Below, in pieces: positions 25,724 to 37,768 of a DNA stretch of 64,000 nucleotides. A program made the translations under genes and the position numbers. Location: contig OZ320321.1 in NCBI GenBank assembly GCA_976226885.1, positions 51,894,001-51,958,000 on the forward strand, given 5' to 3'. The notes beneath the pieces were generated by a model, which saw nothing but the letters and a program-made list of their open reading frames with translations, was not told where the DNA came from and made no database searches. Numbering within the stretch: the stretch's first letter is position 1; each line of letters starts with the position of its first letter. The stretch is from Iphione sp. A-MEVVRFRX5. Taxonomy: Eukaryota.

Positions 25724-25982
25724 CCGGGTCTATTCATAACTTCTCCATCACCATTGTTTGACCGATAAATACCTCTTAACAATATAACAATATGTAAGCA
25801 TACCTGACACCTCCACATGGATAGAACACCTGATTAAACACTTCATGCAATACCATATTGGCTTGTATTGATCACGAAACAAAAGCATTTATATATTTGC
25901 TAACAATGAACACTGAACACTTGCTTGATCAAAATATGAGGGGGAAGGCTGGAGAGCTAACCAGTGGTTTACCAGTGGTACA
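25724..25982 (+). repeat. Local direct duplication, copy 1 (259 bp; empty site for the solo LTR)
   Basis: Aligns end to end with 26629-27076 once the 185-bp insert and 4-bp TSD are removed. Confidence 0.9.
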
Positions 25983-26628
25983 CTTCTCCCCCCCCCCCTT
26001 CTTATAAGCTTTGTCTGCAAAGCTTGGATACTTCCATCTCTTAATCATGTAAGCAGTTTCCTCTCTTACATGGAGCATGCCTATCCAACTATGTGCCATT
26101 ACCCCAGTCTCTGGAAGGTAAACCCACTGTCTGGACATTCAATCTCCTCCACTAGATCATACAATTAAGTGTAATGCCAGTATAGCCGCAAGAACGTAAT
26201 GAATCACAGCACTTAAGAGACTTAACAGAAGGAGGAAATGGTAACCATGGAGCATGATGAGAGGCGGCCTTCGCCACCTTTCCAGGAGTCCTCAACTCTG
26301 GCCGGTTCACCGACAGGATTTCAGCCTTCCATGAACTGCGAGAAGGTCCATCAGAAGCTGATGGAGGAATTGATTGGCAACGAAGATCTGATCAAAAGAG
26401 AGTCAAAATGACTGACGATCTGATTAAGCATCTGAACCTGAGTGCCGAGTATGTGCTGAATTGATAGGAATTGGTTGATTGAAAGAGATTTTTGGGTTGC
26501 ACAACCCTTAAGAGTCTTGATTTTCTACCATGACACAAGTCAGGGAGAAGATCCTACCCTGGCACAGTCAGGCAGTCGACACTTGAGAAGGAAGAGGCAT
26601 GGCATCTGGAGGAGCAGAAACAATCACT

Positions 26629-27076
26629 CCGGGTCTATTCATAACTTCTCCATCACCATTGTTTGACCGATAAATACCTCTTAACAATATAACAATAAGC
26701 AAGCACACCTGACGCCTCCACATTGATAGAAGACCTAAGTAAACACTTCATGCAATTCCATATTGGCTTGTATTAATCACTAATCAAAAGCATTTATATT
26801 GTTCGCCCCGATCAAAGAAACATGACTCGCCAATAAAATTTGATGAAGTTTATTGCTGAATCACACTAATGACAACGAGGCTCCGCCCGGCCCGCCTTTT
26901 ATACAGAATTGTAACTCCAGGTGGAGCCCCTCTTAAGATTAACTCCGGTAGACCAGTGGCTCCGCACTGGGGGAGCCCGCAACAATATGTTTGCTAACAA
27001 TGAACACTGAACAATCGCTTGATCAAAATATGATGGGGAGGGCTGAAGAGCTAACCAATGGTTCACCACCGGTACA
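26629..27076 (+). repeat. Local direct duplication, copy 2 (carries solo LTR)
   Basis: 448 bp = 259 + 185 + 4; first 69 bp identical to copy 1. Confidence 0.9.
26800..26984 (-). mobile_element. Solo LTR (185 bp), probably Ty3/Gypsy type
   Basis: TGTT...AACA termini; ATAT TSD (26796-26799 / 26985-26988); on the - strand TATAAAA (26903-26897) upstream of AATAAA (26854-26849); absent from the duplicate copy. Confidence 0.8.
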
Positions 27077-33164: not shown

Positions 33165-33307
33165 CATTACAAGCAACACCGAGTGGAGATCAACAATATT
33201 TATTACAATAAACGATCACAGAGCAGTCATCAAAAAATAGTCGACAAAAATTGGCAATAATTCTCACAATAAAAGACAAGTTAAAATCGTTGTTAAAAGT
33301 GAGTCAA
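33165..33307 (-). repeat. Split direct repeat B2 (143 bp, 3' terminus)
   Basis: Identical to 33488-33630. Confidence 0.97.
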
Positions 33308-33396: not shown

Positions 33397-33492
33397 CTGT
33401 TGCGACGAGGAACGACGACTGAATGTCCATAAATAGCCTCGGTGCCTCGCAATGAACGCCAATGAGCACGCATGCCCATTGGACACCCATTA
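33397..33492 (-). repeat. Split direct repeat A2 (96 bp)
   Basis: Identical to 37673-37768. Confidence 0.97.
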
Positions 33493-33630
33493 CAAGCAAC
33501 ACCGAGTGGAGATCAACAATATTTATTACAATAAACGATCACAGAGCAGTCATCAAAAAATAGTCGACAAAAATTGGCAATAATTCTCACAATAAAAGAC
33601 AAGTTAAAATCGTTGTTAAAAGTGAGTCAA
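33488..33630 (-). repeat. Split direct repeat B1 (143 bp)
   Basis: Begins at the YR stop codon; overlaps A2 by CATTA. Confidence 0.97.
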
Positions 33631-34592
33631 GTGCCAAGGGGATGTGATATGGCGGCAGTAACTTGCTTGGACGACACTTGTGGCAAGTACGCTCTGACCG
33701 CGTGCGACCGCCAATCCCCCCTCTTCATCAGGGTATGTAGGGGGGTGCCGGCGCGTAGGGCGGCTTGGGCGCCCCCTCGCCTGAGAGCATGCAAGGTGGG
33801 TCGGGGGCCGCTGGGCTGTGCCTGTTGAAGGGCCGCCGACCAGAGGCGACGGGCGACGCGGATCGGTATGGCGTCCTTCTCGTTTGGAAACGTGCAGAAC
33901 GGGTCGTCGGAGCGCCATGTAGAGTTGTCTCGACCGGCCTGCTGGAACGCTTGAGTGTAAGAGATGCCCTGTAACGTCAAAGGGGCATGAATGGTGATCT
34001 CCTTGGTGAGATTCTGCCGCGTCTTCGACCACCGGATGGCGATTCGCAACTGATCACCATCCACCACAACATCACGTTTTCGAAGATGATATCTCGGGTT
34101 AAAACCCCCCACCGTGGGCGGGAAGAGGTTGGATTGCCTCAATAGGGACAGGAATAGCAGCACCACCCCAAGGGCAACCTGTCGGCCGATGGCGGAGTGA
34201 CCTAGGGCGGCTACTACCCGGCTGAGGCAGTCAGGCGTGACCGTAGGCGGGTCCCGATGGGGCTGCGGGGTAATTCGAAGAGCCCTAATGGCATTCTTCA
34301 CCTGTCGACTGTCCCATGCATTCGTATCACGCGCGAGGTCTGCGTAGTGGGCCTTTATCTGAGAAATGTTGTTGGCGACCGAAGGTGGGGCGATCCGTGT
34401 CGCCAACGACTCAATGTAAGCACAGATGTCCCTAACTCGGGGCCGGGCAGGGTCGAAGTCATAGCGTTTGGCGAATTCGTCAAACCTCCTGACCGCGGAG
34501 AGACGATTGGCGCGTGTCCCCGGTCTCACGGCCTGGGTCTGCCGGATCTCAGCTTTTCGCAGAAGAGCATCATACTCAGGATCTGAAATACA
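33627..34592 (-). CDS. Tyrosine recombinase (ORF3) of the Ngaro element; open frame begins right after the RT/RH stop, true start unresolved
   Basis: Catalytic R (LLRQSNL), K (WSKT), HxxR (LHALRR), W (GDWRS), Y (VRAY); the only Met is near the C-terminus; the track start at 34529 is GTG. Confidence 0.93.
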   Translation of the reverse strand, partial: CISDPEYDALLRKAEIRQTQAVRPGTRANRLSAVRRFDEFAKRYDFDPARPRVRDICAYIESLATRIAPPSVANNISQIKAHYADLARDTNAWDSRQVKNAIRALRITPQPHRDPPTVTPDCLSRVVAALGHSAIGRQVALGVVLLFLSLLRQSNLFPPTVGGFNPRYHLRKRDVVVDGDQLRIAIRWSKTRQNLTKEITIHAPLTLQGISYTQAFQQAGRDNSTWRSDDPFCTFPNEKDAIPIRVARRLWSAALQQAQPSGPRPTLHALRRGGAQAALRAGTPLHTLMKRGDWRSHAVRAYLPQVSSKQVTAAISHPLGT

Positions 34593-36575
34593 TCATAAAT
34601 ATGGTGCGTAGTTGTGTGCCCAAGCTGACGGTGATACGGTATATAATGCATAGTGTTGGACGATTACTTTGGCTGCAGCGGCCTCACTGGACGAATTCCC
34701 CGCGCGACTCAATGCGTCCGCTACCTGCATTTGTACACCTGGAACGTGCTGGGTCCTGATCTCGATCCCCGTGCTGGCGGCGTGCATCCAGAGGGCGCGT
34801 GCACAGGCGTTTATTACGTGATCGCGCCCCCTGCCGTGGTTGAAAACATCAACGGTAGGCTTGTTGTCACATCTGAGGAGAACGATGTCCCCCGCGCTCA
34901 TACGTGAGGCAAATGTGCGTACGGCGAGTAGGCAATTAATCGCCTCTAATTGGCTGATATGGTGTGCCTGTGCCATTGCCTTCGGCCATATGTATGTGTA
35001 TGCGAGGGTCCCATCTGTGGCTCCTGCGCCGGTCAGGCAGGCGTCGGCTTCTATGACCACGTTATGGGGAAGCGGTACGAGGAAAGATCTACAGTTTCCC
35101 TGCTCACTGTAGAGGCGAAGCCATCTCAGGTCTGCTCTTACGCTGGTGTCAATGATGACTTGGTCTTGATTTGCCTGTCTTATCGCATCTAGGAGCCGAC
35201 ACATATATAATCTGGCAGGAGACACTATCTTCGCCAGGTGATTGACTTTGCCAGCTATACTCCTAGCCTCTCGAATGGTAATGACATCCTTTTCTGCTGC
35301 ATCGGCAAAATGTCTGACATATGAGTGGACCTTTTCTTCTGGGATTGATAGCTGTGCCTTCTCCATGTCAAAGAGAACTCCAAGCCACTTTACCTGATAT
35401 GACGGGGGTTGTAGCTTGGAGCTCGCCACAGTAAGCCCCATCGCTGCCAGCTGTTGTTGGACCACGTTGAAGTCACTATTCGGGTCGCGATCCGGAGGCG
35501 TGACTATCAAGATGTCGTCCAAGTACATCAGGGTCTTTATTCCCATGGCATCGAAGTGTCTTACCAGGAAGTCAGCTACTCTCTGCATACAGAGCGCGGA
35601 GCATCTCGCTCCAAAAGGGAGCGCTGTGTCGACATAATATGCGCCATGCGTGTAGATGCCCAGCAATGGCCAGTCACCTGGACATGTTCTGAAATGTCTA
35701 TATGCTCGCTTTATATCCACCACAGCGAGCATGGGGGGCTGACCGATCTGGAGGATGGCGTCGACCGCATCACTGACTGTAGGTAGAGAGTGTTCGTATG
35801 TGACACCTGAAATAGTGTTCTTTTCCACATACTTGTTGACGTTAGCCTCATGAGGATAAGATAAGTCAACAATCACGCGCCTAGAGCCATCAGATTTTGC
35901 GCGAGTCATTAGAGGGGCAACGCTGAACCATGGCTCGAAGGGCGGAGCATCGAATGGTCCCAGCAATGCTCCATCTTGACATTCAGTACTGACATAGTCC
36001 CTTATAGCCGTAGGGTATGCTCTAGCTGATGGATGATTATCAACATGTGCATTACAGAGAGGTGGGCCTCCATAGCCCAATGGGAAGCCGTAACGCACAC
36101 CGGTCAATACGAAATCATCGTGTGGGTGTCCAGTGCTCCTGCTCTGCCATTGTTGGAACGGCAGGTTACTTTCGATCGGAATCCTTGCTGCCTGGGAATT
36201 GGCTAGTCCCGTGGCGGCCACTACATCGTAGATATAGGCCATCCTCGGAGGGAGGAGATGGGTAGATGCTGGCCAGGTGTGACAGCGGTTCTCTGCGAGG
36301 GCATACTGCGGCAGCTGTATGATTCTGCCGGTGTCCTGTGGTGATAGCGGGCAATCAAACATGCTAGAGTAGCCAGCTGGTGTGGGTTCCTCTGTATGTG
36401 CAGCGTTTGAGCAGTGATCGTGTCCTGATCGCGACTGAAAAACATGGCAACTGTCCATCGTGACGATCGGGGAGAGGTCGAGGGACAATAAGGGTAGGTC
36501 GGCGACACATGGAGTCGAAGTAGGCACGGGTGATGGTGTATTTTCACCCACATCACAAACAATCAGTTTTTTAAC
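34593..36575 (-). CDS. Reverse transcriptase-RNase H (ORF2) of the Ngaro element
   Basis: GPFDAPPF, VIVDLSYP, VDIKRAYR, LPFG, YLDD; RNase H EADAC, LEA, CDN, ADALSR; frame open from 36575, first ATG at 36458 (track start 36551 is GTG). Confidence 0.95.
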   Translation of the reverse strand, partial: VKKLIVCDVGENTPSPVPTSTPCVADLPLLSLDLSPIVTMDSCHVFQSRSGHDHCSNAAHTEEPTPAGYSSMFDCPLSPQDTGRIIQLPQYALAENRCHTWPASTHLLPPRMAYIYDVVAATGLANSQAARIPIESNLPFQQWQSRSTGHPHDDFVLTGVRYGFPLGYGGPPLCNAHVDNHPSARAYPTAIRDYVSTECQDGALLGPFDAPPFEPWFSVAPLMTRAKSDGSRRVIVDLSYPHEANVNKYVEKNTISGVTYEHSLPTVSDAVDAILQIGQPPMLAVVDIKRAYRHFRTCPGDWPLLGIYTHGAYYVDTALPFGARCSALCMQRVADFLVRHFDAMGIKTLMYLDDILIVTPPDRDPNSDFNVVQQQLAAMGLTVASSKLQPPSYQVKWLGVLFDMEKAQLSIPEEKVHSYVRHFADAAEKDVITIREARSIAGKVNHLAKIVSPARLYMCRLLDAIRQANQDQVIIDTSVRADLRWLRLYSEQGNCRSFLVPLPHNVVIEADACLTGAGATDGTLAYTYIWPKAMAQAHHISQLEAINCLLAVRTFASRMSAGDIVLLRCDNKPTVDVFNHGRGRDHVINACARALWMHAASTGIEIRTQHVPGVQMQVADALSRAGNSSSEAAAAKVIVQHYALYTVSPSAWAHNYAPYL

Positions 36576-37663
36576 TCACGATTCTCTGGTTGGTTGTTGT
36601 TGTCTGTGCGTTCCTTCTTCCTCCAGCGAGGCTCGGCTGGCTTGTCGGGCTTCGGCTGTAGCTGGTGCTCGTTGTCCTTCACCTTCATGCGGGTTTTCCT
36701 GGCACAGGCTGTTGCCGCATGTTGGCAATCGCGATTGCCGACGCCGTACCAACATACGGCGCACCTGTGCCAGAAAGTGAGGGGTCCATCGGGATGCCCG
36801 TCAAATTCCTTGCAACCTGTGGTGTTGAACTGTGGGCATGGGTGTCTGCGTTGTTCATCAGATAAGTTGCCCCTGACGAGGGACAGTCTTGTACGAAGTC
36901 GGTGGATCGCCTCCTCTGCAAACCAGGTGATTTTGTGCTGGTGAATTTGGTCGAACGTCGTAAGCGACCATGTCCTGACCGCGGTCCAATTCCCTTGTGT
37001 GGCATCCTCGCATATCTCAGTGATATGCGTAAGGTATCGGCGCAATTCATAGTCCATGGGGAATTCGTCCAGGGCCCTATTGCACAGTGCTAACACATAT
37101 TCAGGGAGAGTAAGATCGTCGATCGAAGGTCGCTGTTTGACCACAACCGCCAGGTCCCTCGGCAATGAGACGAAGGGGCGCCAGCGCTTGTGCACGTCAT
37201 GTGTAACTGGGTCAGGGTATGCCTTACCGTGGGTGCGTCCGAAAGAGATGTTGTCTCGGTGTTGCCTACGGTATCCTGTATCTTCATAACGTCTCCAGTC
37301 GTTGGTATCCTCGTTAAATGACCGTCTGTCCCCGCTGTTGTACCTTGGCCTAGGCGCACGGTGCTGCGTTGCTGGGGTAGAGTGCACTGGTGGACGGTCA
37401 AAAACATCGCTGTCCAACCATGACCGAGGTGGCGGGGTCGAGCTGACTGTGTGGCCACCGGTGGCCGTAGCACGCTTCTTTCCCCCCAGCTTGACCACGG
37501 CTGAGCGGACTTTAGTTTTCTTCTTCTTCTTCTTCCGTTCTTTTTCCGGACTCTCCTGCTTCTGCAGGAGAATTGCCATACAATCCTCCATCCGCTTCAT
37601 CCTTATAAGGACGTCCGAGAGCTCGGTAGGCGGATTTTCGGGTTGGGAATCGGAAGACGACAT
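36563..37663 (-). CDS. Gag-like ORF1 (366 aa) of the Ngaro element
   Basis: ATG at 37663, 10 nt after A1; Lys-run putative NLS (KERKKKKKKTK); C-terminal Cys/His cluster CPQFNTTGC...HRCAVC...HAATAC typical of DIRS/Ngaro Gag. Confidence 0.85.
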   Translation of the reverse strand: MSSSDSQPENPPTELSDVLIRMKRMEDCMAILLQKQESPEKERKKKKKKTKVRSAVVKLGGKKRATATGGHTVSSTPPPRSWLDSDVFDRPPVHSTPATQHRAPRPRYNSGDRRSFNEDTNDWRRYEDTGYRRQHRDNISFGRTHGKAYPDPVTHDVHKRWRPFVSLPRDLAVVVKQRPSIDDLTLPEYVLALCNRALDEFPMDYELRRYLTHITEICEDATQGNWTAVRTWSLTTFDQIHQHKITWFAEEAIHRLRTRLSLVRGNLSDEQRRHPCPQFNTTGCKEFDGHPDGPLTFWHRCAVCWYGVGNRDCQHAATACARKTRMKVKDNEHQLQPKPDKPAEPRWRKKERTDNNNQPENRELKN

Positions 37664-37672
37664 ATCCAGTAC

Positions 37673-37768
37673 CTGTTGCGACGAGGAACGACGACTGAAT
37701 GTCCATAAATAGCCTCGGTGCCTCGCAATGAACGCCAATGAGCACGCATGCCCATTGGACACCCATTA
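37673..37768 (-). repeat. Split direct repeat A1 (96 bp, 5' terminus)
   Basis: Identical to 33397-33492. Confidence 0.97.

Follow-up and report, generated by a model that had tools for sequence, protein, structure and literature searches.

A conserved A_AAA_AAC heptamer as a predicted -1 frameshift signal at the gag/pol junction of Ngaro-like retrotransposons in Iphione sp.

How the second and third open reading frames (ORFs) of tyrosine recombinase (YR) retrotransposons are translated, given that they lack start codons, appears unsettled. ORF overlaps are described as not usual in Ngaro elements (PMC3266345), and the sole statement found in the available passages is a guess, namely a probable frameshift placed at the pol/YR boundary by Poulter and Butler 2015, as quoted in PMC13003380. 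Here we analyse a 4.6-kb Ngaro-like retrotransposon on the minus strand of a 64,000-nucleotide (nt) stretch of Iphione sp. A-MEVVRFRX5 (contig OZ320321.1, positions 51,894,001 to 51,958,000; hereafter the window, whose own numbering is used throughout), with a layout that matches the Ngaro definition in the passages seen of PMC8547959 (section 11) and PMC3783388. We propose, with a probability of roughly 0.88, that a -1 ribosomal frameshift at a heptamer ending gag gives rise to a predicted 1,023-amino-acid (aa) protein comprising Gag, a reverse transcriptase (RT) plus a probable RNase H, and that the recombinase would be made from a second, spliced RNA.

A conserved heptamer at the gag/pol junction

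The features of the junction are as follows.
36563..37663, minus strand: gag-like ORF of 366 aa, with an N-terminal basic cluster and a Cys/His-rich C-terminal part
34593..36575, minus strand: pol ORF, 660 codons from stop to stop, with an RT domain (RVT_1, E 1.3e-13) and a probable RNase H
36566..36572, minus strand: slippery heptamer A_AAA_AAC in gag phase, found in 81 of 82 clean copies with a -1 overlap
36563..36565, minus strand: gag stop codon TGA, directly after the heptamer
36576..36578, minus strand: TGA closing the -1 frame upstream, which confines the shift to a 10-nt overlap
36465..36518, minus strand: peptide motifs STP and SPI, encoded in the -1 frame before pol reaches its first ATG
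36456..36458, minus strand: first in-frame pol ATG, not conserved

On the minus strand, gag finishes with CGT GAG TTA AAA AAC TGA, and the pol frame, which is -1 relative to gag, opens at 36575 behind the TGA at 36578-36576. The junction thus holds a heptamer of the canonical X_XXY_YYZ form, in zero-frame phase and within the -1 overlap. An earlier sequence-only reading of this stretch had placed A_AAA_AAC directly before the gag stop, at 36572-36566, and the RT frame at -1 with its opening at 36575, and both placements were confirmed. It had also foreseen a Gag-RT-RNase H fusion of about 1,020 aa, for which arithmetic gives 366 + 657 = 1,023 aa as a prediction, the RNase H part being only probable. 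We take A_AAA_AAC to be the gag-pro slippery site of mouse mammary tumour virus. In the part of PMC5009743 that was searched, this heptamer is listed among the most shift-prone on mammalian ribosomes.

A search of the host genome with gag returned at least 151 matches, of which 145 were examined; excluded were three near-duplicates, a tandem neighbour, a fragment and a match absent from the listing. Among these 145 loci, 10 had no downstream pol and 135 carried both ORFs, 105 of which had no stop codon in either the gag or the RT core (clean copies). The pol frame was -1 with an open overlap in 82 of the 105 clean copies, the window copy included, and 81 of these 82 possessed an in-phase A_AAA_AAC (78) or A_AAA_AAT (3). 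After thinning to below 80% RT identity (median pairwise identity 49%, minimum 36%), the heptamer was present in 68 of 69 families, with locus L082, which has an out-of-phase A7 run, as the sole exception. A more distant RT query identified 30 further host-genome loci (39-46% identity), comprising 18 with a -1 overlap, 16 of which hold the heptamer inside it, 5 without a long upstream ORF and 7 without an overlap. Conservation across relatives, a check named in the sequence-only reading, was found at both levels of divergence. The gag stop lies 0, 3, 6 or 15 nt past the heptamer in 42, 11, 1 and 27 copies, respectively. A quick tree of host-genome copies only, used just for clade naming, gave four clades. 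Three of the 23 other clean copies (loci L081, L084 and L090) carry a seventh A and have gag and pol fused into one frame of 957-1,079 codons, for which a mutation and an assembly error are alike possible.

Codon usage around the junction departs from that of the rest of gag. The Lys codon within the heptamer is always AAA, compared with 30% AAA among Lys codons of gag, and the preceding codon (CCA, TCA, GCA, ACA, GTA, TTA, CAA or AAA, specifying eight residues) always ends in A, the background of A at four-fold third positions in gag being 21%. Elsewhere in gag, in-phase A_AAA_AA[C/T] was found at only 3 of 20,739 codon positions, as against 68 of 69 families at the junction, which is more than chance would give. 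To control for shared ancestry, we determined the share of the major codon in near-invariant columns, which had a median of 0.47 in pol (69 columns) and 0.58 in the gag core (28 columns), reached a maximum of 0.82, and was 0.95 or more in none of either set. On this evidence, the constraint at the heptamer is one on nucleotides, beyond protein-coding needs. The heptamer is very likely functional.

One explanation of such a constraint is that the A6 run serves as a site of transcriptional slippage, where the polymerase adds one A in some transcripts and so aligns pol with gag. The heptamer does contain A6, and the three loci described above have both a seventh A and a fused frame, so that the run must acquire bases at some stage. 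However, slippage needs no fixed phase, and a frame-blind count of A runs of six or more found them in one phase in 81 of 82 overlaps, as against 3 of 22 elsewhere in gag. Because the A runs hold one phase, a ribosomal event is indicated rather than polymerase slippage. Furthermore, the runs at the junction are exactly 6 long in 80 of 82 copies with a 3' base that is always C or T, and the covarying structure 3' of the site (see below) fits a ribosomal pause. A6 is also short for slippage by RNA polymerase II. We therefore regard transcriptional slippage as extremely improbable.

The sequence-only reading had itself named a route that would undo the frameshift, with RT initiating at the ATG at 36458. 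More broadly, pol could be made alone from this or a similar ATG, via a subgenomic RNA or reinitiation past the gag stop, leaving the heptamer incidental. The ATG at 36458 lies upstream of the RT domain in strong context (A at -3, G at +4), and some in-frame ATG precedes the RT core in 43 of 69 families; yet the positions of these ATGs are scattered among families and 26 of 69 have none. Also, 19 of 21 members of the window clade have an STP motif in the pol frame no more than 50 codons from the site (1/21 and 0/21 for the other frames); most of these motifs precede the first Met, and all synonymous codons are used. Independent initiation of pol is thus unlikely, both because 26 of the 69 families lack an ATG and because the STP/SPI motifs are conserved upstream of it; it would, moreover, leave the nucleotide constraint at the heptamer unexplained, and we consider this route very improbable as a whole. 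The -1 frameshift reading, by comparison, passes the comparative tests available from sequence: the heptamer is in phase, the ATG is not kept and the -1 frame is conserved as protein. Pol homologues in a protein database (120 listed of 188 matches) were called from their first ATG, and the junction is not shown in these entries.

As a separate observation, the STP and SPI motifs of the Gag-Pol linker (36518-36465) resemble sites of proline-directed kinases, and S-T-P is also the Polo-box docking motif.

RNA structure downstream of the heptamer

Downstream of the heptamer lies a candidate stimulator.
36528..36556, minus strand: candidate stimulatory hairpin with two mutually exclusive pairings, weak in the window copy

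The first pairing, GTGATG (36556-36551) with CATCAC (36535-36530), starts 9 nt past the heptamer, and the alternative, GGGTGA (36549-36544) with TCACCC (36533-36528), starts 16 nt past it. Both are present as the sequence-only reading had written them, but in the window copy its proposed stem-loop is not more stable than shuffled sequences. The first stem has a predicted energy of -4.8 to -7.2 kcal/mol and a pair probability of ~0.36 versus ~0.63 for the alternative; folding the downstream region of the window copy at five lengths gave z scores of -0.6 to +0.5, and a possible second stem with 36505-36501 reached a z score of -1.3. A search of Rfam returned one match at chance level only (E 0.47).

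Across 68 families, folding z scores in 50-nt windows were -1.21, -0.95 and -0.71 at offsets -10, 0 and +10, and ranged from -0.62 to +0.28 elsewhere. By this measure, structure just 3' of the heptamer is enriched family-wide, and only at the junction. A sister clade of 28 members, most of which have the gag stop 15 nt past the heptamer, can form a predicted H-type pseudoknot, with stem 1 pairing about +5 to +17 with +27 to +39 and the loop at +19 to +26 pairing downstream. When each member's own pairing was compared with swapped partners, using pseudoknot windows that had been picked after viewing the sequences, stem 1 gave a z score of -7.4 and stem 2 of -5.6 (p 0.0001 each); shifted controls were negative in the window and sister clades (p 0.10-0.80 in the latter). 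In a gapless alignment of 25 sister-clade members, 64.6% of stem-1 cells were paired compared with 58.5% after shuffling (0/500), with 19 double changes compared with 9.5 (1/500). A simple pseudoknot search likewise gave a mean z score of -1.57 in the sister clade (22 sequences) versus -0.67 in near relatives (20) and -0.59 in others (26). Within the window clade, the swap test detected a hairpin signal (p 0.0006). Taken together, a structural stimulator is supported by sequence comparison for the family, not for the exact stem named in the sequence-only reading.

Several points, including the choice of swap-test windows noted above, weigh against the proposed frameshift and splice. The hairpin of the window copy has a minimum free energy of -8.6 kcal/mol and a z score of -0.03, with 90 of 200 shuffles as good; this copy ranks 10th of 21 in the swap test of its clade, where no second stem or pseudoknot signal was found (p 0.65), and the two remaining clades are weak or negative for structure (p 0.04-0.27). 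In alignment A1, a one-column slide matches the stem-1 covariation score (0.194 vs 0.185). Beyond structure, 23 of the 105 clean copies lack an open -1 overlap; in 22 of these 23 the A run can still be made out by eye, and the copies appear decayed. Every -1 example is from a single host genome, and an intron-less genomic copy, as might descend from the predicted spliced RNA, was not found among 20 apparent orphan recombinase loci.

A predicted spliced recombinase and distant relatives

The third ORF and its predicted splice signals are located as follows.
33627..34582, minus strand: recombinase exon of the YR ORF (34592-33627), with a Phage_integrase match at E 0.0045, below the curated cut-off
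37223..37228, minus strand: predicted phase-1 5' splice site G/GTAAG, following codon 145 of gag, with 37228 as the final exon base
34582..34590, minus strand: predicted 3' splice site TTTCAG/A at the YR start, phase 1; first exon base 34582
34583..37227, minus strand: predicted 2,645-nt intron, which would hold 3' gag, the frameshift site and all of pol

The YR frame opens only 3 codons before the acceptor and contains no Met until near its C-terminus. Joining the two predicted sites gives an open frame of 463 aa with one terminal stop, so that the features of a GT-AG intron, namely conserved donor and acceptor, matching phase and an open spliced frame, are found together. The donor GGT is present in all 67 aligned families (2 of 69 are gapped), where GGT would be expected at 24% of Gly codons, and is followed by AAG in 54 families and AGG in 13; in 17 selected further families it reads GGT AA[T/C] in all 17, at a similar distance. 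On the acceptor side, AG falls exactly one base into the first conserved YR codon at 86 of 89 loci, with C before it in 83 and, in front, a tract poor in G and rich in pyrimidines, and the preceding codon is one of seven different codons, all ending in A. The same AG was observed in 29 of the 30 closest YR copies. The Gag part that would be retained carries a basic cluster (at least 5 K/R in 8 residues) in 56 of 61 cases. These signals suggest that the recombinase is likely made as a 463-aa GagN-recombinase from a separately spliced RNA. A further candidate donor lies where repeat A1 ends (37673). Together with an ATG at 37706, upstream of it, this donor suits the frame of the window copy, but it is not conserved and was rejected.

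The proposal quoted from Poulter and Butler 2015 would instead have the recombinase made through a second frameshift at a pol/YR overlap, with no splicing. Consistent with the quoted review, 45 of 93 loci show a -1 overlap between the end of pol and the YR frame. Because the YR frame relative to pol varies (-1 in 47, +1 in 37 and 0 in 9 of the 93 loci, decayed copies included), such a frameshift is a poor fit, and in the window copy YR is in frame behind a TGA that lacks a CTA context. What is fixed is the pyrimidine-rich CAG in phase 1 and the matching phase-1 donor in gag, and these conserved splice signals, as predicted, argue against the frameshift of the review, which we judge improbable.

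The same gag donor could in principle also serve pol, through alternative splicing to a second acceptor in front of it. Phase-1 acceptor-like sites scoring above 5 do occur in the spacer in 13 of 68 families, versus 1 of 68 in each other phase. However, these 13 sites are spread over ~480 nt with no score above 10, whereas the recombinase acceptors that formed the training set of the matrix have a median of 16. Across the 68 families, no acceptor that could serve a separate pol RNA is conserved in front of pol. Splicing of this kind would also bypass the conserved heptamer, and we give it next to no credence.

From the observed sequence, frames, conservation and covariation, we infer the following expression plan. 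On the unspliced RNA, most ribosomes would halt at the TGA and release the 366-aa Gag, while a smaller share would move back by one base at A_AAA_AAC and go on into pol. RNA structure that begins 5-10 nt downstream would cause the pause, with a pseudoknot as the predicted stimulator in one sister clade and probably a simpler, weaker hairpin in the window copy, where the adjacent stop codon perhaps helps. On a second RNA, a phase-1 splice from gag codon 146 to the recombinase start would excise the remainder of gag together with the whole of pol, giving the 463-aa GagN-recombinase.

A metagenome scan identified 21 more distant loci (23-41% RT identity), 12 of which possess a long upstream ORF. 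This ORF ends in TGA-CTAG at 7 and in TGA-CTAT at 3 of these loci, the rest reading TGA-TATA or TGA-CTCC, and pol lies in frame directly behind the single stop at 9 of 12 loci, or 8 of the 10 with TGA-CTA(G/T). In the passages seen of PMC4132726, UGA-CUAG is an experimentally shown readthrough context. All 12 distant upstream ORFs have their best donor in phase 1, at a distance of 575-791 nt from the stop that follows (665 nt in the window), and the best acceptor near the YR start is likewise in phase 1 at 14 of 15 loci. From these predicted sites, the splice plan spans the frameshift and readthrough groups, which differ in their type of gag/pol recoding. Since 10 of 12 distant loci have TGA-CTA(G/T) with gag and pol kept in one frame, Gag-Pol fusion by recoding seems to be the conserved end.

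Outside the host genome, no -1 junction was found at the DNA level among the 21 metagenome-scan loci. One database protein (P0095) is a fused Gag-Pol whose two parts are joined by FKKR, a weak hint of a -1 junction elsewhere. Conversely, none of the 30 further host-genome loci described above, which were found with a readthrough-group query, had a TGA-CTA(G/T) junction. No relative was found among viral contigs, and no match to gag came from the protein collection, which was searched at near lengths only.

The element and its relation to known systems

The window element is bounded by split direct repeats in the Ngaro-like order A1 ... B1 A2 B2, with gag, RT and probable RNase H, and YR on a single strand in that order.
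37673..37768, minus strand: repeat A1, 96 nt, 100% identical to A2
33488..33630, minus strand: repeat B1, 143 nt, 100% identical to B2
33397..33492, minus strand: repeat A2, pairing with A1
33165..33307, minus strand: repeat B2, pairing with B1

With 100% identity within each repeat pair and three open frames, the insertion is probably recent. A Pfam search of the gag-like ORF gave no match. For pol, the closest solved structures are Ty3-type RT/RNase H entries; neither window pol nor 24 aligned pol proteins had a Pfam match to RNase H, or a match to adenine methyltransferase (Dam) at E 0.1. By eye, pol shows four acidic motifs in what we take to be the order expected of RNase H, and YR shows what are presumably the R, HxxR, W and Y motifs of tyrosine recombinases.

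Among relatives, repeat A measures ~90-130 nt in most 6-kb stretches. In the window copy (37768-37690) and its relatives it holds an inverted CCAAT-like pair (GGCCAAT...ATTGG), with an initiator-like TCAGT/TCACT ~25-35 nt before the repeat end, which we presume to be promoter elements. Directly after A2, on the minus strand (33396-33385), a CCACCCACCC-like tract is kept in nearly all families and is possibly a priming or strand-transfer signal for reverse transcription. The host genome contains several hundred Ngaro-like families, mostly low-copy, highly divergent and often intact; with ~150 scored matches for each family search, such counts are lower bounds. Six loci (L246, L250, L251, L254, L037 and L125) have internal deletions that remove much of pol, with the recombinase and its acceptor kept, and are possible non-autonomous derivatives. 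Elsewhere in the window (25724-27076), unrelated dispersed direct repeats of 171 and 92 nt are 93% and 89% identical.

Frameshifting as such is a known mechanism. For the Ngaro class we found no description: the literature searched, in the passages available, describes no gag/pol frameshift signal, readthrough or spliced recombinase for Ngaro/DIRS elements, and the term 'DIRS' is absent from the first 300,000 of the 449,034 characters of PMC5009743. A mention of a gag/pol frameshift may exist in Goodwin and Poulter 2004 or in Poulter and Butler 2015, so the signal may not be new in print. What the present analysis adds, all as predictions, is a family-wide constraint, a pseudoknot clade, a readthrough alternative and a spliced recombinase. 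The family thereby offers exact signals for both start-less ORFs, with the frameshift placed at gag/pol instead of pol/YR, as well as ~70 natural variants of one -1 cassette, including a covarying pseudoknot in one clade and a stop at four distances. It would also follow that Pol and YR entries in databases have wrong N-termini where the first ATG was taken as the start. In Cafeteria, ORF1 seems to set the integration preference of Ngaro elements (PMC8547959, section 11), for which a GagN-recombinase fusion, if true, would offer a mechanism.

With Ngaro elements of the DIRS order, the window element shares the arrangement A1-[gag, RT and probable RNase H, YR]-B1 A2 B2, the lack of a methyltransferase match, and the lack of an integrase or protease ORF, although the passages seen of PMC8547959 and PMC3783388 give neither a gag/pol recoding signal nor a spliced recombinase. 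Like the -1 cassettes of retroviruses and those of animal long terminal repeat (LTR) elements (the latter as covered in the searched part of PMC5009743), it combines A_AAA_AAC, a short spacer and a candidate 3' hairpin or, in the sister clade, H-type pseudoknot, in what would be a control of the Gag:Gag-Pol ratio. Unlike them, it is a tyrosine-recombinase element without LTRs, protease or DDE integrase, in which the stop usually adjoins the heptamer and the 3' structure varies by clade. Readthrough at UGA-CUAG, as given in the passages seen of PMC4132726, resembles the gag ends of the distant relatives (TGA-CTAG, 7/12; TGA-CTAT, 3/12), and is not the mechanism of the window element.

We think it rather likely that Ngaro-like elements share a retrovirus-like plan of three products: Gag by termination; Gag-Pol by recoding, either -1 at A_AAA_AAC with clade-specific hairpins or pseudoknots or UGA-CUA readthrough; and a GagN-recombinase from an env-like spliced RNA, whose Gag N-terminus would give the recombinase nuclear import, particle loading or target choice. 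In the spliced subgenomic RNA of retroviral env, one intron drops most of gag-pol and joins the 3' ORF to the 5' start codon. The predicted single intron would likewise bring the 3' ORF to the 5' start codon, with the difference that this ORF is a recombinase and would retain 145 Gag residues as its N-terminus.

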